Shown: piece after piece, positions 3,042 to 26,264 of the stretch
Numbering within the stretch: position 1 is the stretch's first letter
Layout: each line of letters starts with the position of its first letter
Assembly: GCA_964530335.1 (NCBI GenBank)
Contig: CAZGYG010000004.1
Coordinates: forward strand, 8,104-72,103
From: an uncultured Rhodospirillaceae bacterium
GTDB lineage: Bacteria; Pseudomonadota; Alphaproteobacteria; SP197
Direction of reading: 5' to 3'
Length of the DNA stretch: 64,000 nt
Position numbers and translations under genes: made by a program
The notes under the pieces: model-generated
What the model saw: only the letters and a program-made list of their open reading frames with translations
What the model was told of the DNA's origin: nothing
The model's database searches: none

Positions 3042-3935
3042 ATGGCGCGCAAGAGAGTCGTGCTGACCGGAGCGGCGGGCACCATCTCATCGCAGATCCT
3101 GCCCGAATTCCGCGCCCGCTACGACCTGGTGCTGCTCGACCGCACGCGCCAGGGCAAGACGGGGACCATGAACGACATCGTGCTGGCGGACCTCGCCGAT
3201 CCGGACCTCGACCGCATCCGCGCGCACTTCAAGGGCGCCGACGCGATCGTCCACAACGCCTGGGCCATCGACCCAGCGCACCCCTCCGACATGGGCGGCC
3301 AGTGGCTGCCGGCAAACCGCAACCCGGCGCTGCCCATGAGCCTGGACGGCTTCGCGGTCGAACGGACCAACATCGACATGGTGTACCACGTGCTGCGCCT
3401 GGCGGTGGAGGAGGCGATCCCGCGCGTCGTGATCGCCAGCTCGAACCACGCCGCCGACTGGTACGAGACCAAGTTGCACGCGAGCGGCATGCACGCGGTG
3501 GGCCCCGAGACCTATCCCTTGTCCGACAACTTCTACGGCTGGGCCAAGGCGGCCTACGAGCTGCTCGGCCACGTGTTCGCGTGCGGCACCTTCGGCCGGC
3601 CGGTCGAAACCGTGTTCATCCGCATCGGCGCGCCGCGCCAAATCCGCATCGAGCGCGACGACGCAGTCGGCTACCGGCGCGACCTCGGCGCCTACGTCAG
3701 TCCGCGCGACCTGGCGCAGCTCTACGTCAAGGCGATCGACGCACCGGACATCCGCAACGCCGACGGCGTGCCGTGGCTGGTGGTCTACGGCCGGTCGGGC
3801 AACGCGCGCGGGTTCTGGAGCCTCGAAACCGCCCGGAACGTGCTGGGCTACGTGCCCCAGGACGATTCCGAGGTCGCGTTCGCCGACGACGTGCGCCGGC
3901 TGGTGATCGATCCCGCGCGCCAAGCCGCGCCGTGA
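3042..3935 (+). CDS. NAD-dependent epimerase/dehydratase family protein (Rossmann-fold sugar nucleotide epimerase-like)
   Basis: N-terminal VVLTGAAGTISSQILPEF glycine-rich NAD-binding motif and YxxxK-type region; 297 aa. Not assigned as hpnA because it is 3 kb away from the hopanoid genes. Confidence 0.7.
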   Translation: MARKRVVLTGAAGTISSQILPEFRARYDLVLLDRTRQGKTGTMNDIVLADLADPDLDRIRAHFKGADAIVHNAWAIDPAHPSDMGGQWLPANRNPALPMSLDGFAVERTNIDMVYHVLRLAVEEAIPRVVIASSNHAADWYETKLHASGMHAVGPETYPLSDNFYGWAKAAYELLGHVFACGTFGRPVETVFIRIGAPRQIRIERDDAVGYRRDLGAYVSPRDLAQLYVKAIDAPDIRNADGVPWLVVYGRSGNARGFWSLETARNVLGYVPQDDSEVAFADDVRRLVIDPARQAAP

Positions 3936-3949
3936 ACCTGCCGCGCCTG

Positions 3950-6244
3950 ATGGGCTACGCCGATCGGATCAGCGTCCGGCCCGGCGAGACCATCCGATTC
4001 AAGGTCAGCGCCGACGGCATCGCGCGCTACCAGGCCGATATCGTGCGGCTCGTTTGCGCGGCTGATGCTCCCGGCGGCCCGGGATTCGACGAGCGGCCGG
4101 TCGAAAGTCCGGTCTCGGGCGAATACCCGGGGCGCGTCCAGCCGATCCATGCCGGGTCCTACGTGCGCGTGCCGGCGACCGAGCGCACCCAGCGCATGGC
4201 CAGCTTCACCGCCCAGGCGTTCGTCTGGCCGACGCTCCCGGGCCACGGCACCCAGGCCATCCTCGGCACCTGGAGCCAGGGGCTGGGCGCCGGCTTCGCC
4301 CTGGTCGTCGAGGAGGACGGCACGTTCGCGCTGCGCCTCGGCACCGCGGGCGGCGCGCTGCTGAACGTTTCGACCGGGCATAGGCTCGCCGCCCGGGCGT
4401 GGACCTTCGTCGCCGCGACCTACGACGCGGCGTCCCGCCAGGCCGTGCTGGTCCAGGACCCGCTCGACCCGGCGACCCGACCGGCGCGCCCCATCGTGGT
4501 CGGCGCCAAGCTCGACGGCGCGCGCGCCGACGGCGGGCGCGACCTGCTGATCGCGGCGTGGAACGCGAGCCAGCGGCCGGGCCAGGCGCCGACCGGCGCC
4601 CACTTCAACGGCCGCGTCGAGGCGCCGAGGCTGGCGGACCGCGCGCTCGAGCTCGACGCCATCGAGGCGCTCGGCAAGCCGATCCCGCCGCTCGGGCTCG
4701 GCCAGGCGCTGCTCGGCTGCTGGGACTTCGCCCGCGACATCGGCTCGACCCGCGTCGTCGACGTGGGTCCCGGCGGGTGGCACGGCGCCACCGTCAACCT
4801 GCCGACGCGCGCGGTGCGCGGGCATCGCTGGACCGGCGCCGAGATGAACTGGCGCTACGCCCCCGAGCAGTACGCGGCGATCCACTTCCACGACGACGAT
4901 CTCTACGACTGCGGCTGGGACGACGACATTGTCTTCACCGTGCCGGCGGACCTGCCGAGCGGCTGCTACGCGGCGCGGCTAGTCGCCGACGACGCCGAGG
5001 AGCGGATTCCGTTCATCGTCCGCCCGCCCGCCGGCCGGGCGAGCGCGCCCGTCCTGTTCGTCATGCCGACCGCGACCCACATGGCCTACGCCAACGGCAC
5101 CAAGGCGCTCGACGACGAGGCCACCGAGGTCGCCAAGGGCGGCTTTACGGTCGTCGAAGCGCGCGAGGCGGCGCTCGCCGTGCCCGCGCTCGGCGGCTCG
5201 CTTTACGACCACCACCGCGACGGCAGCGGCGTGCACCACGCCTCACGGATGCGGCCCATGCTCGATGCCCGGCCCAGGACCGGGTTGTGGACCTTCGACG
5301 CCGACACCTTGATCCCGGCCTGGCTCGCCGCCATCGGCCAGCCGGCGGACATGGCGACCGACGAGGACCTGGACGCCGAGGGCGCGGCCCTGCTCGCGCC
5401 CTACCGGGTCGTGCTGACCGGCCGGCAACCCGAGTACGTCTCGACCCGCATGAGGCAGGGCTATGACGACTACCTCGGCCGCGGCGGGCGCCTGATGTAC
5501 CTGGGCGGCAACGGCTTCTACTGGCGCATCGCCTTCCACCCGGAGCTGCCGGGGGTGATCGAGGTGCGCCGGCCCGAGGGCGGGGTGCGCGCCTGGTCGA
5601 GCGCCCCGGGCGAGGGCTACCACGCCTTCAGCGGCGAGCCCGGCGGGCTGTGGCGCCGGCTCGGGCGGCCCCCGAACACGCTGGTCGGCGTCGGGTTCAC
5701 CGCACAAGGCTTCGATGGCTCGCGCCCCTACCGGCGGCTTCCGGGCGCCGACGACCCGCGGGCCGCGTTCGCGTTCGCCGGCGTGGCGGGTCCCGAGATC
5801 GGCGCCCACGGCCTGCTCGGCAACGGCGCGGCCGGGGTCGAGATCGACCGCTTCGACCTGGCGCTGGGCTCGCCGCGGCACGCGCTCGTTCTGGCCCGGG
5901 CCGACGGCTTCTCAGCCAACTGGCGCCGGGTGACCGAGGAGTTCCTGACGCTCCACCCGATGATCGACGGCGCCTCGAACGACCTGGTGCGGGCCGACCT
6001 GGTGTTCTTCGAAACCCCGGCGGGGGGCGCCGTGTTCGCGGTCGGCTCGATCGCCTGGACGGCGGCGCTGGCCACCGACGGTTACGCCAACGACGTGGCG
6101 CGCGTCACGGCCAACGTGCTGCGACGATTCCTCGACGCGCAACCGTTCGCCATGCCCGACCCCGACGCGGTGCCGATCACCGACCCGGATAGCGCGACCG
6201 TCGGCGCCGCCGACGTGGCGGAGGGCCTGCGCCGGCGCCCCTGA
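3950..6244 (+). CDS. N,N-dimethylformamidase beta-subunit-like family protein (large, ~764 aa)
   Basis: ATG at 3950 (alternative GTG at 3932 overlaps the upstream stop). The track ORF start at 3302 lies inside the epimerase gene in another frame. The sequence MGYADRISVRPGETIRFKVS... resembles the DmfA2-like family as far as I can recall. Coding-like composition runs throughout. Confidence 0.55.
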   Translation: MGYADRISVRPGETIRFKVSADGIARYQADIVRLVCAADAPGGPGFDERPVESPVSGEYPGRVQPIHAGSYVRVPATERTQRMASFTAQAFVWPTLPGHGTQAILGTWSQGLGAGFALVVEEDGTFALRLGTAGGALLNVSTGHRLAARAWTFVAATYDAASRQAVLVQDPLDPATRPARPIVVGAKLDGARADGGRDLLIAAWNASQRPGQAPTGAHFNGRVEAPRLADRALELDAIEALGKPIPPLGLGQALLGCWDFARDIGSTRVVDVGPGGWHGATVNLPTRAVRGHRWTGAEMNWRYAPEQYAAIHFHDDDLYDCGWDDDIVFTVPADLPSGCYAARLVADDAEERIPFIVRPPAGRASAPVLFVMPTATHMAYANGTKALDDEATEVAKGGFTVVEAREAALAVPALGGSLYDHHRDGSGVHHASRMRPMLDARPRTGLWTFDADTLIPAWLAAIGQPADMATDEDLDAEGAALLAPYRVVLTGRQPEYVSTRMRQGYDDYLGRGGRLMYLGGNGFYWRIAFHPELPGVIEVRRPEGGVRAWSSAPGEGYHAFSGEPGGLWRRLGRPPNTLVGVGFTAQGFDGSRPYRRLPGADDPRAAFAFAGVAGPEIGAHGLLGNGAAGVEIDRFDLALGSPRHALVLARADGFSANWRRVTEEFLTLHPMIDGASNDLVRADLVFFETPAGGAVFAVGSIAWTAALATDGYANDVARVTANVLRRFLDAQPFAMPDPDAVPITDPDSATVGAADVAEGLRRRP

Positions 6245-14719: not shown

Positions 14720-17407
14720 ATGACCGGAGAACCTAGGCCCGCGCCGTGGCACGCGCTTGGCGTCGCCGACGTGCTTGGTCGGCTCGACGTCGGGGCGAAC
14801 GGCCTCGATGACGACGAGGCGGAGCGCCGGCTCGCGCGCGTCGGACCCAACCGGCTACCCGAAGCGCCCAGGGAAGGCTGGGTCTCTAGGCTTCTCCGGC
14901 AGTTCGCCAACGTCCTGATCTACGTCCTGCTCGCGGCGGCCGGCGTCTCGCTGGCGCTCGGTCACGTGACCGATGCCCTGGTCATCCTGGCGGTGGTCGT
15001 CATCAACGCGATCATCGGCTTCGTCCAGGAGGGCCGGGCCGAACGCTCGCTCGACGCCATCCGAGGACTGCTGGCGCCGAGCGCCACGGTGGTGCGCGGC
15101 GGCCGGCGGCGGCGCATCGCGGCCGAAAGCCTGGTGCCCGGCGATCTGGTCGTGCTCGAGCCGGGCGACCGGATCGTGGCCGACGCGCGGCTCGCGCAGG
15201 CCCGCGACCTGGCGGTGGACGAGGCGGCGCTGACCGGCGAATCGCTGCCCGTCGCCAAGGCCGTGGACCCGGTCGCCCCCGAGGCCGGCTTGGCCGATCG
15301 CGCCGCCATGGTCTACGCCGGCACCCTGGTCGCCGCGGGCCACGGCCGGGGGTTCGTCGTGGCGACCGGACCGGCGACCGAGATCGGCCGCATCGGCACG
15401 CTGGTGGCGACGGTCGAACCCATGACGACGCCGCTGCTGCGCCGGCTCGCGCGGTTCGGCCAATGGCTTACCGCCGCGATCCTCGGCCTTTCCGCCGTGA
15501 CCTTCGCCGTCGGCGTGCTCGGCCACGGCGAGGACGCCGTCGCCATGTTCATGGCCGCGGTCGGCATAGCGGTCGCGGCGATACCCGAAGGGCTGCCGGC
15601 GATCCTGACCATCACGCTCGCGATCGGGGTCGAGCGCATGGCCCGGCGCAAGGCGATCGTGCGGCGGTTGCCCGCGGTCGAGGCGCTCGGCTCGGTCACC
15701 GTCGTGTGCACCGACAAGACCGGCACGCTGACGCTGAACGAGATGGCGGTCGAGGCCGTGGTCGTGGACGGCCGGCGGCTCGCCGTCGAAGGCGTCGGTT
15801 ACGCGCCCGCGGGCCGGGTGGAAACTGCTCCCGGATCGCACGCCCTGGTCGAATCCCTGGCCCGCGCGGCGCTGCTGTGCAACGACGCCGAGGTGCACGA
15901 GAAGGACGGGCATTGGGTGGCCGCCGGCGACCCGACCGAAGCCGCGCTGGTCGCGCTCGGCGGCAAGATCGGGCTGGATGCGAAGGCGGAACGCGAAGCG
16001 TGGCCGCGCGTCGATGCGCAGCCCTTCGCGGCGGAAACCCGCTTCATGGCGACGCTCAACCGTCGCGCCGACGGTGGCGGGCTGGTTTCGGTCAAGGGTG
16101 CACCGGAACGGGTGTTCGACCTCGTCGCCGGCGTGGCCACGGCCGACGGCCGCCGCCCGCTCGACCGGGACGCCTGGCATCGCTCGGCCGCCGCGCTCGC
16201 CGCCGAAGGGCATAGGGTGCTGGCCGTGGCCAGCGCCGAGGCGTTGCCCGGAATCGACCGGCTCGAGGCGCGCGCGCTGGCCGGCCTGACGTTGCTCGGC
16301 CTGGTCGGCATCAGCGATCCGCCGCGCGAGGAGGCGCGAGCGGCGATCGCGCGCTGCCGGGCCGCCGGCATCCGGGTCAAGATGGTGACCGGCGACCATC
16401 CGGAAACCGCCGGGGCCATCGCCCGCGCCCTCGGGCTCGACATGACCGGCGGAGTCATCGCCGGTGGCGAGCTCGCCGGCCTCGACGACGCCGCGTTCGC
16501 CGAGCGGGTCCAGGCGTCGGACGTGCTCGCCCGGACCAGCCCGGAGCAGAAGCTGCGGCTCGTCCGGTCACTCCAGGCGCGGGGCGAGCTCGTGGCGATG
16601 ACCGGCGACGGCGTCAACGACGCGCCGGCGCTCAAGCAGGCGGACGTAGGCGTCGCCATGGGCGTCAAGGGCACCGAGGCCGCCAAGGAAGCGGCGCAGA
16701 TCGTGCTCGCCGACGACAACTTCGTCGCGATCGCCGACGCGGTCGAACAGGGGCGCGCGATCTACGACAACGTCAAGAAGGCGATCCTCTACATCCTGCC
16801 GACCAGCTTCGCCGAGGCGCTGACCGTGGTGGTCGCCGTCGCGCTCGGCGTCGCGCTGCCGATCACGCCGGTGCAGATCCTGTGGGTCAACCTGGTCACT
16901 GAGGTCACGCTCAGCCTCGCGCTCGTCTTCGAGCGCGCCGAGTCCGACGTCATGGCGCGCCCGCCGCGCCCGCCCGGCGAACCGTTGATGTCCGGTACGC
17001 TCGCCTGGCGCACGATCCTGGTGACGGCGTTGTTCCTGGCCGGTGCGTTCGGGCTGTTCGTCTGGCAGCTCGGACGCGGCGGCGATCTGGCCACCGCCCG
17101 TACCGTCGCGGTCAACGCGGTCGTCGTGTTCGAGGTCTTCTACCTGTTCAGCGCGCGTTCCTTCGTGGCCTCGGCCATAACGCCCGCAGGCTGGACCGGG
17201 GCGCGTCCGGCGCTCGTGGCCTCGGCGATCGTGCTCACGTTGCAGCTCGCGCTCACCTACCTGCCGGCGGCGCACGCGGCGTTCGATACCCGGCCAATCG
17301 ACGGCGTGGCGTGGGCCGCGATCGTGGCCGCGGGCGCCGCCGTCTTTGCCGTCGTCGAATTCGAGAAGGCGATCCAGCGCGGGCGCGCTCAGATCAGGCG
17401 GGCGTGA
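14720..17407 (+). CDS. Cation-transporting P-type ATPase (P2-type, Ca2+/Mg2+-like)
   Basis: Cation_ATPase_N-like N-terminus, TGES, DKTGTLT phosphorylation motif, [21 protein letters not shown] hinge motif, 10 predicted TM helices. Confidence 0.9.
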
Positions 17408-18444
17408 TGAACGGCGGCGTGCACGCGCGCACCCGCGACGAGTCCCAGCGCGGCGCACGACCGCCGCGTCACCAAGGCGAGCAGCGTGAAACCGCCGCAG
17501 TCGAGCGGCAGGGCGACGTGGGGCGCCTCGCCCTCGGGCACGCGCGGCACCGTGGCCTCGGTCTCGAACAGCGCGCTGGTCGCGCCCTGGGGCGCGAGCG
17601 CGACGCTCACGTCGCGCGCGGCGACGTAGAGCCGGGGCCGGGCGCCCGGAGCCGGGCCGCCCGGCACCACCAGCCGCTGGCCTCCGGCGAGCGTCACCTG
17701 GATTCCCTCGGCCGACTCGGTCCACGCCGCGAGCTCGAGCGCGACCGCGAGCGAGCCGAGGCCGCCGAGTTCGGCCGCGTCGGCAAGGGCCTCGGTCACC
17801 CCGCCCTGGGCGCGAACCCGGCCGCCGTCGAGCACCAGAACCGTGTCGGCAAGCCGCACCGCGTCCTCGACGTCGTGGGTGACGAGCAGCACCGGGATGG
17901 CGAGCTCGCGATGCAGGCGTTCGAGGAACGGCAGGATCTCACCCTTGCGCCGGGCATCCACCGAGGCCAGCGGCTCGTCGAGCAGGAGCAGATCGGGTGC
18001 GGCCAGGAGCGCGCGGCCGATGGCGACGCGCTGAGCCTCGCCGCCCGACAGCGCCGAGGGGCGCCGGGGCAGCAGGTGGCCGAGGTCGAGCAGCGCGACC
18101 GCCTCGTCGAGCGCGAGCCGGCGGCGCTTCGCCGCCACCCGGCGAAAGCCGTAGAGCAGGTTGTCGCGCACCGACATGTGGCGGAACAGGCGCGCGTCCT
18201 GGAACACCAGCCCGACCGGGCGGCGGTGCGCCGGCACGAACGTGCGTGCGTCCTGCCACACCCGGCCATCGACCGTGAGCGTGCCGTCAGCCCGCTCGAG
18301 CCCGGCGATCAGGCGCAGCAGCGTGGTCTTGCCGGCGCCGGACGGGCCGAACAGCACGGTGATGCCCGCGGGCGGCAGGCTCGCCGCCGCGTCGAGCGTG
18401 AAATCCGCGCGCGCGTAGCGGAAGCGGAAATCGACCCCGGTCAT
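17389..18444 (-). CDS. modC: Molybdate ABC transporter ATP-binding protein
   Basis: ATG at 18444 overlaps the modB stop (ATGA). Walker A GPSGAGKTT, LSGGEAQRVAIGRAL, Walker B, and a C-terminal TOBE/Mop domain. The 3' end overlaps the convergent P-type ATPase by 19 bp. Confidence 0.85.
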   Translation of the reverse strand: MTGVDFRFRYARADFTLDAAASLPPAGITVLFGPSGAGKTTLLRLIAGLERADGTLTVDGRVWQDARTFVPAHRRPVGLVFQDARLFRHMSVRDNLLYGFRRVAAKRRRLALDEAVALLDLGHLLPRRPSALSGGEAQRVAIGRALLAAPDLLLLDEPLASVDARRKGEILPFLERLHRELAIPVLLVTHDVEDAVRLADTVLVLDGGRVRAQGGVTEALADAAELGGLGSLAVALELAAWTESAEGIQVTLAGGQRLVVPGGPAPGARPRLYVAARDVSVALAPQGATSALFETEATVPRVPEGEAPHVALPLDCGGFTLLALVTRRSCAALGLVAGARVHAAVHHARLI

Positions 18445-19127
18445 ATCCGGAGCCAGCGCCGGTTGACGGCGTAGACCAGGACGAGCACGCCGAACGAGAT
18501 CGCCAGCAGCAGCGCCGACATGCCGTGGGCGTAGCCGTACTCGAGCGATTCCACATGGTCGTAGATGGCGATGGACACCACCCGGGTGGTGCCCGGGATG
18601 TTGCCGCCGACCATGAGCACGACGCCGAACTCGCCCAGCGTGTGGGCGAAGCCCATGACCGCGGCGGTGACGAAGCCGCGCAGCGCGAGCGGCGCGGCCA
18701 CGGTGGCGAAGCGGTCCCAAGGTCCGGCGCTGAGCACGGCGGCGGCCTCGAGCGGCCCTTCGCCGACCGCCTCGAACGCGTTCTGCAGCGGCTGCACGAC
18801 GAAGGGCAGGGAATAGACCACCGAGGCGACGACAAGGCCGGCGAAGGTGAAGGTCAGCGGCTGGCCGGCGAGCCCGAGCCAGGCCGCGCCGAGCGGGCCG
18901 TTGGGCCCGAGCAGGATCAACAGGTAGAAGCCGATGACCGTGGGCGGCAGCACCAGGGGCAGGGCGACGACCGCCTCGAAGATCGCCTTGCCGCGCACGC
19001 GGGTGCGCGCGAGCCACCAGGCGAGCGGTGTGCCCACCGCCAGCAGGGCGACGACCGTGACCAGGGCGAGCTTGAGCGTCAGCCACAAGGGCTCGAGCTC
19101 GCCCGACAGCGCTGCCTCGACCGACAC
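18441..19127 (-). CDS. modB: Molybdate ABC transporter permease
   Basis: 228 aa, 5-6 TM helices, EAA-like loop (NAFEAVGEGPLEAAAVLSAGPW...). Confidence 0.9.
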   Translation of the reverse strand: MSVEAALSGELEPLWLTLKLALVTVVALLAVGTPLAWWLARTRVRGKAIFEAVVALPLVLPPTVIGFYLLILLGPNGPLGAAWLGLAGQPLTFTFAGLVVASVVYSLPFVVQPLQNAFEAVGEGPLEAAAVLSAGPWDRFATVAAPLALRGFVTAAVMGFAHTLGEFGVVLMVGGNIPGTTRVVSIAIYDHVESLEYGYAHGMSALLLAISFGVLVLVYAVNRRWLRI

Positions 19128-19172
19128 GTTGCCTCCGTCCCGTACGGCGGCCGATCTTAGCCCGGGCGTCGC

Positions 19173-19925
19173 CTACGGTGTCGTGCCGTAACCGAAGGCG
19201 CGGATCGTCGCCTGGGCCTCGGCGCCCTTCAGGAAGTCGAGAAAGGCCAGGGCCGCGGCGTTGTCCGCGCCGTGCGCCAGCAGCACGGCCTGCTGCTCGA
19301 TCGGCGCGTGGAGCTCGGGGTCCACATCCCAGCGGCAGCCCGGCCCGGCCGGGTCCGCGATGACCTGGGACAACGCGACGAACCCGGCCTCGGCGTTGGC
19401 GGTGGCGATGAAGGCGTAGGTCTGGCCCACGTCCTGGCCCTGGACGATGCGCGCCTCGACCTGGTCCCACAGGCCGAGTGCCTCCAGCGTCTCCCGCGCC
19501 GCCCGCCCGTAGGGCGCGATGGCCGGGTTCGCGATCGCGATTCGGCTGGCGGCGCGCAGGACATCCAGGCAGTCCTTGCCGGTCGCGGCCGGGCTGCGGC
19601 TCAGCAGCACGAGGCGGCCGTAGGCGTAGGCGAAACGGTTGGCGGCGATGGCGACGCCGTCCTCGACCAGGGCGGCGGGGCGCCCGGCGTCGGCGGCGAG
19701 GAACACGTCGAACGGCGCGCCCTGGCGGATCTGGGCGTAGAGCTGGCCGGTCGAGGCGGCGGCGATCGCGATGGCGTGGCCGGTCGCCGCCGTGAAAGCC
19801 GGCGCGAGCGCCTTGAGAGGCTGGGCGAAGTTGGTGGCGACCGCGACGATCGCGGTCTCGGCCCGCGCCGTGACCGCGGCGAGCGCGATGGCGAGCGCCG
19901 CGACCCAGCCGAACCGTGCGACCAT
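19173..19925 (-). CDS. modA: Molybdate ABC transporter substrate-binding protein
   Basis: ATG (MVARFGW...) followed by a signal peptide (AALAIALAAVTARA). ModA-fold motifs (ATNFAQPL, DVFLAADA). The track ORF extends spuriously upstream to 21158. Confidence 0.85.
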   Translation of the reverse strand: MVARFGWVAALAIALAAVTARAETAIVAVATNFAQPLKALAPAFTAATGHAIAIAAASTGQLYAQIRQGAPFDVFLAADAGRPAALVEDGVAIAANRFAYAYGRLVLLSRSPAATGKDCLDVLRAASRIAIANPAIAPYGRAARETLEALGLWDQVEARIVQGQDVGQTYAFIATANAEAGFVALSQVIADPAGPGCRWDVDPELHAPIEQQAVLLAHGADNAAALAFLDFLKGAEAQATIRAFGYGTTP

Positions 19926-19936
19926 CGCCGTCCGGA

Positions 19937-20527
19937 TCAGCCTCCCGCCTTGCGGGCGAGCGCGTCGATCTGCCGCTTCAGCGCCTCGATCTGGTCCTTG
20001 AGGTCGGTGAGTTCGCCGGTCCTCGCGGGGGGAGCGTCGCCGGCGGCGGCGGCGGGCGCGGCCTGGGCGAAGGGGTAGAACATGCCCAGCGCCTTCTGGA
20101 ACATGGCCGTGTTCTCCTTGGCCAGGCCCTCGAGCTGGCCGAATGGGTAGAAGCCGCCGAAGGCCTCCTGGACCACCGTACGGTACTGCTCCTGGTTGTG
20201 TTTGAACGCCGACATGCTGAGCTCGAGGTAGCGGGGCACGAAGCTCTGCAGGTTGTCGCCGTAATAGCCGATGAGCTGGCGCAGGAAACCGATCGGCAGC
20301 AGGCTCGGCCCCTTGGACTCCTCCTCCAGGATGATCTGGGTCAGGACCCCATGGGTGATGTCGTCGCCGGATTTGGCGTCGAACACGACGAAATCGGTGC
20401 CGTCCTTGACCATGCGGCAAAGATGGTCGAGCGTGACGTAGCTCGACGTCGCCGTGTTGTAGAGCCGACGATTGGCGTATTTCTTGATGACAATCCGTTC
20501 CTTGCCCGCTTCGGTCGGCTCGGCCAT
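19937..20527 (-). CDS. phaR: Polyhydroxyalkanoate synthesis repressor PhaR
   Basis: N-terminal IVIKKYANRRLYNTATSSYVTLDHL is the PHB accumulation-regulator DNA-binding domain, followed by a PHB_acc domain and a C-terminal coiled coil. Confidence 0.9.
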   Translation of the reverse strand: MAEPTEAGKERIVIKKYANRRLYNTATSSYVTLDHLCRMVKDGTDFVVFDAKSGDDITHGVLTQIILEEESKGPSLLPIGFLRQLIGYYGDNLQSFVPRYLELSMSAFKHNQEQYRTVVQEAFGGFYPFGQLEGLAKENTAMFQKALGMFYPFAQAAPAAAAGDAPPARTGELTDLKDQIEALKRQIDALARKAGG

Positions 20528-20583
20528 GGCCGTGGCTCCTTCGCGCTGCGCGCGCCGCCTGAATCTGGCCCCTGCCTACCTTC

Positions 20584-20622
20584 TTCGCAAGCGCACACAG
20601 AATTTTCGCAGCGCGGTATATT
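20584..20622. promoter_or_regulatory. Imperfect direct repeat TTCGCAAGCGC / TTCGCAGCGC plus TATATT -10-like hexamer in the phaR / small-ORF-phaC divergent intergenic region (candidate PhaR operator or promoter)
   Basis: Seen directly in the sequence, immediately 5' of the ATG at 20629. PhaR proteins are known to autoregulate and to bind repeats upstream of phasin/pha genes. Confidence 0.3.
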
Positions 20623-20628
20623 GCCGCC

Positions 20629-20985
20629 ATGAGCGAGGACAAGACGAAGACCAAGGACGGGGCCATGGCCGAGGGCAAGGACCACGCCGATCTGGCGCGC
20701 CGGTATCTGGACCTGTGGCAACGGCAGGTGGCCGCGATGGCCACCGACCCCGCCCTGGTCGAACTGGCCCGCCGCTTCTTCCAGCCGTTCGGGACCGGCG
20801 ATGGCGCTGACGCCGCAACGGCCAGGTCCGCGCCCGCTGCCGCTGCATCTGGCGACATCGTGGCTCGTCTCGACGAGCTCGCTCGCCGCCTTGCCGCTTG
20901 CGAGGAGCGGCTCGCTGCCCTGGAGCCCGGAGCTCGAGGCGGCGGGGCAGGCGCTCGCCCACGAGCTCGCCGCCGCCGATCCTGA
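20629..20985 (+). CDS. Small coiled-coil protein upstream of and overlapping phaC (118 aa); candidate small PHA-synthase partner subunit, or the displaced N-terminal segment of phaC
   Basis: ATG with the upstream repeat/-10 elements. Residues 1-100 look genuinely coding (DLARRYLDLWQRQVAAMATDPALVELARRFFQPF...IVARLDELARRLAACEERLAALE), while the final ~18 aa (PGARGGGAGARPRARRRRS) look like out-of-frame read-through. Overlaps phaC ORF 20801 in the +1 frame. Confidence 0.4.
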   Translation: MSEDKTKTKDGAMAEGKDHADLARRYLDLWQRQVAAMATDPALVELARRFFQPFGTGDGADAATARSAPAAAASGDIVARLDELARRLAACEERLAALEPGARGGGAGARPRARRRRS

Positions 20986-22015
20986 GGCCCTGGCCCGCGC
21001 GGTCGGGGACGAGGCGGAGCATCGCCTCGCCAGCCTGGTCGACGGGGTCGAGGCCTACCAGCGCCATCCTTACCGGCGCCAGCCGCCGGCCGTGCGCGTG
21101 GCCTGGCAGGCGGGCACGACGCGCCTGCTCGATTACGGCCCGCCGGGCGCGCCGCCATTGCTCGTGGTGCCGTCGCTCATCAACCGGGCCTACGTGCTCG
21201 ACCTGGCGCCCGAATGCAGCCTGCTCGGCGCGCTCAAGGCGCAAGGCCTGCGGCCGTACCTGGTCGACTGGGATGCTCCCGGCGCGGCCGAGCGCGCGTT
21301 CACGTTTACGGATTACATCGCCGGCCGGCTCGAGCGCGCGCTCGACGCCGTGCTGGCCGAATCGGGCCCGCCGGTCGTGATCGGCTACTGCATGGGCGGC
21401 AACCTGGCGCTGGCGCTGGCGCTTCGGCGCCGCCGCGACATCGCCGGGCTCGCCCTGCTGGCGACGCCGTGGGACTTCGGCCAGGACGCGCCGCCGTACG
21501 CGCGCCTGTTCGCCACGCCGGCGGCGCGCTGGGCGCTGCGCCGGATGGGCATGCTGCCCGTCGACCTGATCCAGGCTCTGCTGGCCACGCTCGACCCCAA
21601 CCAGGTGCCGAACAAGATGCGGTCGTTCGCCCGCCTCGATCCGTCGTCGGCGTCGTCGCGCGTGTTCGTCGCGCTCGAGGACTGGCTCAACGACGGCGTG
21701 GCGCTGGCCGGGCCGGTGGCCGAGGAATGCCTGGCCGGCTGGTACGGGCTCAACGAACCCGCGCGAGGGGCTTGGCGCGTGGCCGGCGAGCCGGTGTTGC
21801 CCGAGTCCTGGCCGGGGCCGACGCTCGTGGTCGTGCCGGCGCGCGACCGCATCGTGCCGCCGGCCTCCGCCGAGGCCCTGGCCCGCGCCTTGCCCGGGGC
21901 GCAAGTGCTGCGCCCGGCGGCCGGTCACATCGGCATGGTCGTCGGACGCAACGCCCTGACCGTGCTGTGGCGCCCGCTCGGCGACTGGCTGGCCGCGACG
22001 CTTTCCCGCGCGTGA
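20801..22015 (+). CDS. phaC: Poly(3-hydroxyalkanoate) synthase, two-component type (class III/IV-like PhaC, alpha/beta-hydrolase fold)
   Basis: Lipase-box GYCMGG with the catalytic Cys, followed by the conserved Asp/His region. Size (~350-400 aa) and motif arrangement match class III/IV PhaC as I recall. The true start is uncertain: the first ~40 aa from ATG 20801 look non-coding and overlap the small upstream ORF. Confidence 0.75.
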   Translation: MALTPQRPGPRPLPLHLATSWLVSTSSLAALPLARSGSLPWSPELEAAGQALAHELAAADPEALARAVGDEAEHRLASLVDGVEAYQRHPYRRQPPAVRVAWQAGTTRLLDYGPPGAPPLLVVPSLINRAYVLDLAPECSLLGALKAQGLRPYLVDWDAPGAAERAFTFTDYIAGRLERALDAVLAESGPPVVIGYCMGGNLALALALRRRRDIAGLALLATPWDFGQDAPPYARLFATPAARWALRRMGMLPVDLIQALLATLDPNQVPNKMRSFARLDPSSASSRVFVALEDWLNDGVALAGPVAEECLAGWYGLNEPARGAWRVAGEPVLPESWPGPTLVVVPARDRIVPPASAEALARALPGAQVLRPAAGHIGMVVGRNALTVLWRPLGDWLAATLSRA

Positions 22016-23266
<1,251 letters not shown>

Positions 23267-23286
23267 ACGAGCCGGGAGAGCGAGTC

Positions 23287-24009
23287 ATGGCTCGGGTCGC
23301 GCTCGTGACCGGCGGCACGCGCGGCATCGGCGCGGCGATCAGCCGGGCGCTGAAGGACGCCGGCTACAAGGTCGCGGCCAACTACGGCGGCAACCGGGCC
23401 AGGGCCGACGCCTTCTCCCGGGACACCGGCATCCCGAGCTACCAGTGGGACGTCGGCGACTTCAAGGCGACGGCGACCGGCATCGCCAGCGTCACCGACG
23501 ATCTCGGCGCCATCGACGTGCTGGTCAACAACGCCGGCATCACCCGCGACGCGCCGCTGCACCGCATGACCGAGGAGCAGTGGGACGAGGTGATCCGCGT
23601 CGATCTGTCGAGCTGCTACAACACGTGCCGCGCGGTCGTCGACGGCATGCGCGAACGCGGCTTCGGGCGCATCGTCAACATCTCGTCGATCAACGGCCAG
23701 GCCGGCCAGTTCGGCCAGGCCAACTACTCGGCCGCCAAGGCCGGCATCATCGGCTTCACCAAGGCGCTCGCGCTGGAAGGCGCCCGGCGCGGCATCACGG
23801 TCAACGCCATTTGCCCGGGCTACATCGACACCGAGATGGTCCAGGCGGTGCCCGATAACGTGCTCCAGACCATCATCGCCAGGATTCCGGTGGGGCGGCT
23901 CGGCTCGGCCGAGGAAATCGCCCGCGCGGTCCTGTTCCTGGTCGCCGACGAGGCGGGGTTCGTCACCGGCGCGACGCTGACCATCAACGGCGGCCAGTAC
24001 CTGACCTAG
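23287..24009 (+). CDS. phaB: Acetoacetyl-CoA reductase (SDR)
   Basis: ATG at 23287 ([18 protein letters not shown]). NNAG, YSAAKAG catalytic Tyr-Lys, 241 aa. Follows phaA. Confidence 0.9.
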
Positions 24010-24225: not shown

Positions 24226-24477
24226 ATGAAGGTCAACGTCGTCCGGATCGGAAATTCGCGAGGCATTAGGCTTCCGAAGGCGATCATCGATCAGTGTCGC
24301 TTTGGCGAGAGCGTGGAGCTCGCCGTTCGCGGGGAAACCCTCCACGTCCGGGCCGCCAAGGACGTCCGCGAGGGTTGGAGCGACGCCTTCGCCGCCATGG
24401 CGGACAACGAAGACGATGGCTTGATCGACGGCGAACAACGACCGACCGCCTGGGACCGGTCGGAATGGCGGTGGTGA
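24226..24477 (+). CDS. Type II antitoxin, AbrB/MazE (SpoVT-AbrB fold) family
   Basis: 83 aa. The N-terminus MKVNVVRIGNSRGIRLPKAIIDQ is a typical swapped-hairpin AbrB/MazE DNA-binding motif, followed by an acidic C-terminus. Overlaps the downstream toxin gene. Confidence 0.8.
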   Translation: MKVNVVRIGNSRGIRLPKAIIDQCRFGESVELAVRGETLHVRAAKDVREGWSDAFAAMADNEDDGLIDGEQRPTAWDRSEWRW

Positions 24478-24800
24478 CCGCGGTTCGACGGTTCGTGGTC
24501 TATCTGGTCGCGCTCGATCCCACCCAGGGCGCCGAACTGCGCAAGACTCGGCCGTGTGTCGTCGTCTCCCCCGACGAGATGAACCGAAACATCGCCACCG
24601 TGATCGTCGCGCCCATGACGTCGCGATTGCGCGGTTATCCGACGCGCATTCCGACCCGATTCGGCGGAAAAAAGGGCGAAGTGGTCCTCGATCAATTGCG
24701 GACCGTGGACAAGTCCCGCCTGATCCGGCGACTCGGATCACTGGATGCGGCCACGCAAAGGTCCGTGCTCAGGGTTCTGGCCGAAATGTTCGCGCCCTGA
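24465..24800 (+). CDS. Type II toxin, PemK/MazF family endoribonuclease
   Basis: ATG at 24465 overlapping the antitoxin by 13 nt. Sequence RFVVYLVALDPTQGAELRKTRPCVVVSPDEMN...VIVAPMTS is the PemK/MazF SH3-like barrel signature. 111 aa. Confidence 0.8.
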   Translation: MAVVTAVRRFVVYLVALDPTQGAELRKTRPCVVVSPDEMNRNIATVIVAPMTSRLRGYPTRIPTRFGGKKGEVVLDQLRTVDKSRLIRRLGSLDAATQRSVLRVLAEMFAP

Positions 24801-24852: not shown

Positions 24853-25470
24853 CTACACCGGGTCCTTCGGACCCGAGCCCGCCATTGACGGGCGCTTGGA
24901 GAAGGACTTGAACCAGCGGCCGAGCTTGGTCCGGCCCTTGCGCCACTTGAGGTCCGGGAACCGGAAATCGAGGTAGCCGAGCGCGCAGCCCATGGTGATC
25001 GTGCCCACCGTGGGCGCGCGCCCGATCTCCTTGGCCACGAGCATCGCCTCGAACGCGTCCAGCGCGGTCGTGATCTTCTTCATGTGCTTGTCGACGAACG
25101 GCTGGTGCTGCTTCTCGGCGGGGCGCTGCTTGCGCTCGCCCATGACCAGCACCGCCGCGTCGAGCACGCCGTCGCCGAGCGCCTGGAGCTTGAGCGCCTT
25201 GAACCGCTTCGGCCCGCGCGCCGGAATCAGCCGGCGCCCCTTGGCCTGGCTGTCGAGGTACTCGCAGATGACCGGGCTGTCGAACAGCACCTCGCCTTCG
25301 TCGGTCACGAGCGCCGGCACCTTGCCCAGCGGGTTGAGGCGATCGAGTCCCGAGGCCGGGTCCGCCGCGTTGGTGGGGACGAGATCGACGCGATCCGAGA
25401 GTCCCTTCTCGGCGGCGGTGACGACGACCTTGCGCACGTAGGGCGAGGTCGGAGAGAAGCGCAGCTTCAT
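24853..25470 (-). CDS. Glutathione S-transferase family protein
   Basis: ATG with GGAGACCGCG RBS. Thioredoxin-like N-terminus (SPTSPYVRKV...KVPALVTDEGEVLFDSPVICEYL) and C-terminal GST domain. 206 aa. The track ORF has a spurious N-terminal extension. Confidence 0.85.
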   Translation of the reverse strand: MKLRFSPTSPYVRKVVVTAAEKGLSDRVDLVPTNAADPASGLDRLNPLGKVPALVTDEGEVLFDSPVICEYLDSQAKGRRLIPARGPKRFKALKLQALGDGVLDAAVLVMGERKQRPAEKQHQPFVDKHMKKITTALDAFEAMLVAKEIGRAPTVGTITMGCALGYLDFRFPDLKWRKGRTKLGRWFKSFSKRPSMAGSGPKDPV

Positions 25471-25487
25471 CGCGGTCTCCTTAGTCC

Positions 25488-26264
25488 CTAGAAGTTGTCC
25501 TTCAGCCGCCGGACGGCGGCGAACACGGTGGCGGCATCGGCCGCCTCGAGGTTCAGCCGGCGGCGGATTTCCGGGCTTTCGGGCCTGAGGAACGGGTTGG
25601 TCTCCCGCTCCTCGGCCAGCGTCGATGGCACGGTCGGAAGGCCCGCGGCCCGCGCCGCGTCGATCGCGCGCGCCCGCCGGCCGAGCGCCGCGTTGCCCGG
25701 CTCGACGGTGAGCGCGAAGCGCGCGTTGGCCTGGGTGTATTCGTGGCCGCAGTAGACCTGGGTCGCCCCCGGCAGCCGACGCAGCCTGGCGAGGCTCGAC
25801 CACATCTGGGCCGGCGTGCCCTCGAACAGACGGCCGCAGCCCAGCGCGAACAGGGTGTCGCCCACGAACAGCGCCTCGGATTCGGCGAACCAGTAGGCGA
25901 TGTGGCCGCGGGTGTGGCCGGGTATGTCGAACACCTCGGCCGAGGCCTCGCCGAAGCGATAGACCTCGCCGTCGCCGACGGCCACATCGATTCCGGGGAT
26001 GCGCGCCCGATCGGCCAGCGGCCCGACGACCGTGCAGCCGGTCGCCTTCTTGAGCGCCAGGTTGCCGCCGACGTGGTCGCCGTGGTGGTGGGTGTTGAGG
26101 ATGTGGGTCAGTCGCCAGCCGCGCGCCCCGAGGGCGGCCAGCACGGGATCGGCCACCGACGGGTCGACGACACCGACCACACCCGCCGCCGCTTCGCGCA
26201 CGAGGTAGACGTAGTTGTCCGTGAGGACGGGAATCTGGACGATCTCGAGGCGGGCCATGGCCAC
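25488..26264 (-). CDS. gloB: Hydroxyacylglutathione hydrolase (glyoxalase II)
   Basis: Metallo-beta-lactamase HxHxDH motif (THHHGDHVGG), GHTRGH, C-terminal HAGH_C region. GTG/ATG start at 26264/26258. Confidence 0.85.
   Translation of the reverse strand: MAMARLEIVQIPVLTDNYVYLVREAAAGVVGVVDPSVADPVLAALGARGWRLTHILNTHHHGDHVGGNLALKKATGCTVVGPLADRARIPGIDVAVGDGEVYRFGEASAEVFDIPGHTRGHIAYWFAESEALFVGDTLFALGCGRLFEGTPAQMWSSLARLRRLPGATQVYCGHEYTQANARFALTVEPGNAALGRRARAIDAARAAGLPTVPSTLAEERETNPFLRPESPEIRRRLNLEAADAATVFAAVRRLKDNF

Follow-up and report, generated by a model that had tools for sequence, protein, structure and literature searches.

The window analysed here is a 64,000-nucleotide (nt) stretch of DNA from an uncultured Rhodospirillaceae bacterium (contig CAZGYG010000004.1 of assembly GCA_964530335.1), and our subject is its polyhydroxyalkanoate (PHA) synthase locus, where a small open reading frame (ORF) of 118 amino acids (aa) runs out of frame into the 5' end of phaC. 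The ORF listing, together with Pfam and NCBIfam matches, confirmed the gene order phaR (minus strand), small ORF, phaC, phaA, phaB that an earlier note on this DNA had proposed, as well as the overlap of the 118-aa ORF and phaC in different frames, which is 185 nt long. That note had suspected a single-base frame change and had listed a programmed frameshift, a sequencing indel and a real overlapping two-gene arrangement as alternatives. The last of these is the one that stood, with both frames conserved in all 80 related loci, and we hold with high confidence that this is a real dual-coding overlap of two genes. We class it as a variant of two-component PHA synthase loci. The features of the locus, in window coordinates, are:

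20801 to 20985, plus strand: dual-coding overlap of 185 nt, with phaC in frame +1 relative to the small ORF.
20629 to 20985, plus strand: small ORF, 118 aa and a TGA stop; G+C content at third codon positions (GC3) in its own frame 0.87-0.93 over 20620-20800.
20801 to 22015, plus strand: phaC, 404 aa, start ATG 20801, a short PHA synthase of a distinct alphaproteobacterial clade.
20617 to 20622, plus strand: -10-like hexamer TATATT, 6 nt 5' of the ATG at 20629.
20689 to 20751, plus strand: predicted N-terminal helix of the small protein, D21-P41, DLARRYLDLWQRQVAAMATDP; L22, L29, W30, A36 and D40 invariant.
20782 to 20853, plus strand: predicted disordered linker of the small protein, Ala/Pro/Gly-rich; contains the phaC start and is set by PhaC RPGPRPLPLHL.
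20854 to 20925, plus strand: predicted coiled coil of the small protein, D76-E99, DIVARLDELARRLAACEERLAALE; the same DNA encodes PhaC residues about 18-42; R87, E92 and R94 invariant.
20926 to 20985, plus strand: Gly/Arg-rich basic tail of the small protein and its TGA stop, which comes from a rare CCT (Pro) codon in PhaC 'DPE'.
20819 to 20851, plus strand: PhaC N-terminal motif RPGPRPLPLHL, residues 7-17; column identities 0.90-1.00.
21383 to 21400, plus strand: lipase box GYCMGG with catalytic Cys197; G195-Y196-C197-M198-G199-G200 invariant in 20 homologues.
19937 to 20527, minus strand: phaR (PHA synthesis repressor), divergent from the small ORF; PF07879, PF05233 and TIGR01848 (144.6 bits vs. 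a cut-off of 109).
22091 to 23266, plus strand: phaA (acetyl-CoA acetyltransferase); Thiolase_N and Thiolase_C, E=2.5e-105.
23281 to 24009, plus strand: phaB (acetoacetyl-CoA reductase); adh_short_C2, E=3e-61.

The comparison set comprised 80 related loci from distinct species-level genomes. Frame tests used the 60 loci in which both motifs could be anchored, and counts of stops, resampling and Shine-Dalgarno (SD) sequences used 57. The small ORF ran into phaC in all 80, and the separate, non-overlapping genes that the earlier note had named as possible counter-evidence from related genomes were found in none. The neighbours were largely shared, with a divergent phaR at 71/80 loci and downstream phaA and phaB at 66/80 and 58/80. 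The small frame equalled the phaC frame minus one in 60/60 loci at inter-motif spacings of 133-376 nt, and the minimal overlap ranged from 146 to 302 nt (median 203). In 60/60 loci a separate PhaC start codon (ATG or GTG) precedes RxGPRP, and in 59/60 an in-frame stop lies ahead of that start, which makes an in-frame fusion of the small protein to PhaC impossible. As judged from sequence, the constant offset (60/60) and constant presence (80/80) are those of a functional dual-coding gene pair. An indel introduced by sequencing or assembly could split a single gene and leave the appearance of two overlapping frames, and that appearance is the sole support for such an explanation. Positions 20528-21100 of the window were reproduced exactly in two independent assemblies from Sequence Read Archive (SRA) runs, and the same two-frame arrangement occurs in 80 species, so the probability left to an indel is negligible. 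In two loci (L018 and L026), PhaC has an insertion of ~25 aa right after the segment that overlaps the coil, and the small ORF is lengthened to match, with the stop at +233 in one and at +239 in the other. Past the coil, then, the overlap can absorb indels whose length is a multiple of 3.

The position of the frame switch in the window differs from the one proposed earlier. GC3 is high in the small frame only to about 20800 and high in the phaC frame thereafter (0.83-0.97 from 20800 onward). The switch thus lies near 20800-20830, at the phaC ATG, and not at 20930-20950, where the note had placed a single-base change that would yield a ~460-aa fusion. PhaC has its own start and a conserved motif upstream of that point, and the stop of the small ORF is selected. 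The first ~40 aa of phaC, described in the note as apparently non-coding, have the GC3 of a coding frame and contain the near-invariant RxGPRPLPLHL.

The coil and the PhaC N-terminal region are read from the same DNA in two frames, and we therefore asked which frame is selected. In a scan of the phaC codon alignment, synonymous variation dropped at one place only along the entire gene, precisely over the coil, where it fell to 0.62-0.70 of the expected value. Synonymous-difference ratios there were 0.69 (PhaC frame) and 0.70 (small frame), with flanks at 1.0-1.1. Over RPGPRPLPLHL, entropy at the three PhaC codon positions was 0.37/0.20/1.14, a classic pattern of single-frame selection in the PhaC frame, and PhaC-frame synonymous variation was near normal (0.89). 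Within the coil, entropy was lowest at the second position of the small frame (0.72) and highest at its third (1.06). The N-terminal helix of the small protein had a normal synonymous ratio (1.10), as it codes in one frame only. In the linker the small-frame ratio fell to 0.06, and the sequence of this part of the small protein is therefore dictated by PhaC; over the tail, PhaC-frame variation was again normal (1.00).

Codon usage within the overlap is forced in both directions. PhaC codons over the coil take the rare Leu form TTG in 46/47 and 37/38 cases (background 0.10) and the rare Arg form AGR in 23/25 (background 0.05), with Ser as AGC in 18/18 and Ala as GCC in 44/45. These forced codons supply the heptad Leu, Ile, Val and Glu residues and the Glu/Arg residues of the coil in the small frame. 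Conversely, PhaC imposes rare CTT (30/37 and 30/42) and GCT (30/35 and 35/44) codons on the small frame, against backgrounds of 0.04-0.07. The TGA of the small ORF is made by the CCT (Pro) codon of PhaC 'DPE' in 16/23 loci, compared with a background of 0.049. Reduced synonymous variation and mutual codon forcing together are the pattern predicted for dual coding in both directions. An RNA-based cause of the synonymous constraint was also considered and is unsupported: no Rfam family matched and folding was unremarkable (z = 0.27).

As a null model we redrew the synonymous codons of PhaC while holding its protein sequence fixed. A premature stop in the small frame was expected in 20% of cases and observed in 0/57; a stop within +108..+240 was observed in 57/57 against 39.5% expected, and the maximum in 200 replicates was 32/57. 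The tail held 4.04 Arg plus Lys per 15 codons, vs. 2.92 +/- 0.20 under the null. Both its basic composition and the position of its stop thus exceed what PhaC alone would produce, and the earlier view of the last ~18 aa of the small ORF as read-through is not confirmed. These results bear on a simpler explanation, in which PhaC alone is selected in the overlap, the small protein functionally ends with its N-terminal helix, and coil and tail are a by-product running to a chance stop. The alternative-frame sequence is indeed partly set by PhaC amino acids, wholly so in the Ala/Pro linker (ratio 0.06), and normal PhaC-frame variation over the tail would fit. However, entropy over the coil follows the small frame, the synonymous codons of PhaC are driven to rare forms encoding the heptad Leu, Ile, Val and Glu of the small frame, neither premature stops nor the late or absent stops expected in 41% of resamplings were seen, and the small frame is kept through many linker indels. 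We regard selection on PhaC alone as very improbable.

Still less probable is a programmed +1 ribosomal frameshift, or a mutation, that would fuse the small helix and coil to PhaC near 20926-20950 and give a ~460-aa synthase. Frameshifting, too, would need the fixed frame relation seen in 60/60 loci, and the window has CCC-GGA at 20926-20931 (Pro, then a rare Gly codon), where a +1 slip onto CCG would be possible. Against this, CCC-GGA occurs in only 4/60 loci, most having GCC, which is unable to re-pair, and no slippery site is conserved. The fusion would also skip RPGPRPLPLHL, the best-conserved N-terminal motif and one selected in the PhaC frame; PhaC has a separate start codon ahead of RxGPRP throughout, the stop codon of the small ORF is selected, and the best 150 of about 1400 relatives of the small protein all stand alone. 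In this particular organism, low-level +1 slippage into the phaC frame at the CCC-GGA at the coil end could in principle occur.

A -10-like TAnAnT hexamer, mostly TATACT or TATAGT, lies 5-8 nt 5' of an in-frame small-ORF ATG in 49/60 loci (background 0.0005 per nt), and small-ORF starts are without an SD sequence in 44/57. From this -10 box geometry and the missing SD, we predict that the small ORF is a leaderless first cistron, which we consider likely. A consensus promoter scan of the window found no promoter; the -10 box is visible by locus comparison only. An SD-like sequence precedes plausible phaC starts in 38/57 loci. Two starts are possible for the small ORF of the window. The internal ATG at 20665 has an AAGGA SD, gives 106 aa and aligns with the starts of most homologues, and the ATG at 20629, the start given in the note, is favoured because of the conserved TATAnT-N6-ATG geometry (TATATT at 20617-20622). 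Relative to most homologues the window ORF has a 12-aa N-terminal extension (MSEDKTKTKDGA, 20629-20664), and the -10 box has shifted together with it. In related loci a CTGGC(A/C) element recurs ~17-18 nt 5' of the -10 box, about 30-40 nt 5' of the small-ORF ATG, and could serve as a -35 element or belong to a PhaR operator.

With the phaC start inside the small ORF, the latter might be mainly a translated leader acting in cis, ribosome traffic over the phaC start tuning phaC translation and the peptide itself being unimportant. The absence of an SD at the phaC start of the window agrees with this, and if the first cistron is leaderless, how much the small ORF is translated would vary with conditions. 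But the two helices are strongly conserved at the amino-acid level over about 1400 cluster representatives, and the normal synonymous variation of the N-terminal helix (1.10) indicates selection on the protein and not on the act of translation alone. As a full explanation a cis-acting leader is unlikely; the small ORF may act in cis and also through its protein.

The phaC product has the marks of a PHA synthase. The triad C197, D349 and H376 is invariant among homologues in the alignment, Pfam matched Abhydrolase_1 and the end of PhaC_N, and a profile search against the PDB matched PHA synthases at E about 1e-27. An AlphaFold2 (AF2) model had a predicted local distance difference test (pLDDT) score of 84.7, and its top 15 Foldseek matches were all PhaC structures, including the PHA synthases 9knj, 5hz2, 5t6o and 5xav. 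By its triad and GYCMGG box, the protein is assigned as a genuine member of the PHA synthase superfamily. The note had called it a short, class III/IV-like PhaC. It is short, with only about 100 aa ahead of the core vs. the ~190-aa N-terminal domain of class I, but it does not reach the class III model: TIGR01836 was the best-scoring family at 128.5 bits, far below its cut-off of 365.3, and class I TIGR01838 scored 81 bits (cut-off 622). We rejected a canonical class III or class I identity, both scores being under the curated cut-offs. Homologues at 57-76% identity align over 95-100% of the 404-aa ORF and share a near-invariant RxGPRPLPLHL, followed by SSLAALPLxRSGSLPW, at the N-terminus; a protein identical to that of the window exists in the database. 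A search of the window and the related loci for an additional phaC, of the class I type, was negative.

The small protein is modelled as an N-terminal amphipathic helix joined by a disordered linker to a coiled coil, with a basic tail at the end. AF2 placed helical regions at 9-51 and 74-98 (pLDDT about 89-96; 91-96 for helix 9-38), the second of which agrees, as a prediction, with the coiled coil suggested earlier for the C-terminal part, and gave the linker residues 61-72 pLDDT <50. In PhaC, residues 1-5 and 25-41 had pLDDT <50. Order and disorder in the two AF2 models are thus complementary: where the shared DNA encodes an ordered part of one product, the other product is tolerant. Homologues of the small ORF are 100-204 aa long. 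They share the helix LARRYLDLWQxQ..A...DP and the coil LDELARRLAALEERLAxLE, which a variable linker separates, as well as a basic tail that is only weakly conserved in sequence. A profile search returned about 1400 cluster representatives at E<=1e-3, 787 of them at E<=1e-10; the best 150 are 100-258 aa and end at the tail.

Searches against named families were negative. The window protein and 29 relatives matched no Pfam or NCBIfam family above threshold, so the homology to an unrelated family that the note had named as possible counter-evidence was not found. For PhaE (PF09712 / TIGR01834), the window protein had no match at E<=0.1 and the family members none at E<=1 (0/29). Among Pfam and NCBIfam entries, neither the Bacillus PhaR subunit nor phasins nor other PHA-granule families matched the small protein, and the sub-threshold matches were to generic coiled coils only (DUF7310, SlyX, PspB). 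Its profile search against the PDB likewise retrieved only generic or designed coiled coils and did not match the full-length PhaC 9knj.

The explanation we consider probable is that of two separate genes, with a leaderless small first cistron, an independent phaC start, and both products made and selected. The small gene (20629-20985) would be the first cistron of a phaC-phaA-phaB transcript, translated from a leaderless mRNA beginning at its own ATG into the 118-aa product, while phaC would initiate independently at ATG 20801, in the +1 frame. The two genes share 185 nt because this ATG sits inside the linker of the small gene. Constraint would be split along the overlap, PhaC RPGPRPLPLHL lying opposite the tolerant Ala/Pro-rich linker and the coil opposite a poorly ordered PhaC segment. 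The overlap would lock the small gene and phaC into co-inheritance and co-expression. The small protein would act as a partner or activator subunit of PhaC, or as a granule or nucleoid adaptor, replacing PhaE, class-IV PhaR or PhaM. Its association with PhaC is suggested because it is always found with a short PhaC (80/80), on the same predicted transcript. On the strength of this co-occurrence the small protein is a tentative candidate for a PhaC partner or adaptor, a role to which we give slightly less than even chances. The 'new partner subunit' that the note had floated is to that extent plausible; no relation of the protein to PhaE, Bacillus PhaR or phasins was detected.

Several observations weigh against parts of this reading. 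The phaC start of the window is without an SD, although ribosomes would have to initiate there inside a translated small ORF. One locus of the 60 (L072; JAYZWD010000003.1, about 3850-4120) has a small ORF without the coiled coil: its N-terminal helix is followed by an acidic stretch, RRTRRRR and a stop at +113. PhaC of that locus keeps the LP...G..PW pattern with the common CTC, not TTG, so that L072 is, as read from its codons, a natural 'coil knockout' and an exception that supports coil-driven codon choice. The binomial P-values treat loci as independent, an assumption that is tolerable, not exact, because synonymous sites elsewhere in phaC behave as saturated. The evidence for a partner function is co-occurrence; searches detected no homology of the small protein to PhaE, Bacillus PhaR or phasins, nor to any family in Pfam or NCBIfam, and none of its 150 best-scoring relatives, out of about 1400, is a natural fusion with PhaC. 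A relation to the N-terminus of class I PhaC was tried and rejected. The best hhalign alignment, against retrieved class I N-terminal sequences, set LARRYL-DLWQ on 'LQxxY(x4)LWQ', and this resemblance is not taken as evidence because the probability was 0.36% (E 0.16). The comparison with PhaE, Bacillus-type PhaR and class I PhaC N-termini suggested in the note thus yielded no significant match.

Among the closest known systems are the class III PhaC/PhaE (Allochromatium, Synechocystis) and class IV PhaC/PhaR (Bacillus) synthases. As here, they have a short, ~40-45 kDa PhaC with a Cys-Asp-His triad and without the long class I N-terminal domain, and a small or medium helical protein encoded next to it in the same operon. 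Unlike theirs, the PhaC of the window falls far short of the class III cut-off (128 vs. 365 bits), and the small protein, for which no similarity to PhaE, Bacillus PhaR or any PHA-related family was detected, is much smaller (about 100-200 aa) and is encoded by a gene that shares 146-302 nt with phaC in another frame. Azospirillum baldaniorum AbPhbC2 (419 aa, in phaR-phbC-phbA-phbB) may need an unidentified partner, for which the regulator PhaR has been proposed (PMC11338129), and Rhodospirillum rubrum has a comparable phaC1-phaA-phaB operon flanked by phaR (PMC4026134, PMC12983893). As compared from these papers, the AbPhbC2 locus, and probably that of R. rubrum PhaC1, resembles the window in its divergent phaR, short phaC, phaA and phaB. 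None of the three papers mentions an overlapping small ORF, and a literature search for a described phaC overlap or small partner found nothing relevant. The Azospirillum loci of our set (L038, L042, L050, L057 and L081) carry the overlapping small ORF.

PhaM of Cupriavidus necator is a small helical or coiled-coil protein with a basic C-terminal tail that activates PhaC1 and tethers granules to the nucleoid. The likeness is purely a functional analogy, and the PhaM gene is not known to overlap phaC; by this analogy the basic tail of the small protein might tether granules to the nucleoid. Long same-strand, out-of-frame overlaps (overprinting) are well known in viruses and rare in bacteria. 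Like overprinted genes, the phaC/small pair has a fixed frame, reduced synonymous variation in both frames and complementary order and disorder. Unlike viral cases, it lies in a chromosomal biosynthetic operon and is kept across an order-level bacterial clade.

Beyond the locus, a mazE/mazF-type toxin-antitoxin pair lies just 3' of phaB (24226-24800), its ORFs overlapping by ~13 nt; PemK_toxin matched at E=2.5e-29 and MazE_antitoxin at E=2e-4, below its gathering score. It is followed on the minus strand (24856-26264) by a glutathione S-transferase (GST_N_2, GST_C_2) adjoining a hydroxyacylglutathione hydrolase GloB (Lactamase_B, HAGH_C). Upstream of phaR, at about 17389-19930 on the minus strand, is an ATP-binding cassette (ABC) transporter operon, molybdate- or sulfate-type by appearance, with an ATPase, a BPD_transp_1 permease and an SBP_bac_11 binding protein; this region of high-GC DNA has long spurious ORFs on both strands.

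Existing annotations treat the overlap inconsistently. In P0004, P0006, L084 and L085 the small ORF is called and phaC is shortened to 374-390 aa, whereas in others, such as the window's own assemblies L082 and L083, full-length phaC is called and the small ORF is dropped. On plasmid p3 of A. brasilense Sp7 (L081, NZ_CP012917.1), a model producer of polyhydroxybutyrate, a 500-nt gap without a listed gene (1959-2458) separates phaR from an 'alpha/beta fold hydrolase' that is phaC, as read from the PLSDB gene table of the RefSeq record, which is possibly incomplete. A small ORF of about 175 aa, starting MAESSESD..., lies in this gap and overlaps phaC by 230 nt.

The small protein thus belongs to a family of about 1400 representatives that has no Pfam or NCBIfam family or informative name and is mostly unannotated. 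The phaC/small pair also provides a clean bacterial case of a long (146-302 nt) same-strand overlap selected in both frames, complete with a natural loss variant. As a more speculative proposal, which we put forward as possible, the locus would represent a fifth type of PHA synthase: a short alphaproteobacterial PhaC with a coiled-coil subunit or activator of ~100-200 aa from a new family, encoded by a leaderless first cistron overprinted on the 5' end of phaC, so that the two genes would be inseparable. For the short PhaC of Rhodospirillales phaR-phaC-phaA-phaB loci, to which neither a class nor a partner has been assigned, the small protein is a concrete partner candidate, to be set against the published guess of PhaR, and it may account for weak activity of such phaC genes on their own.

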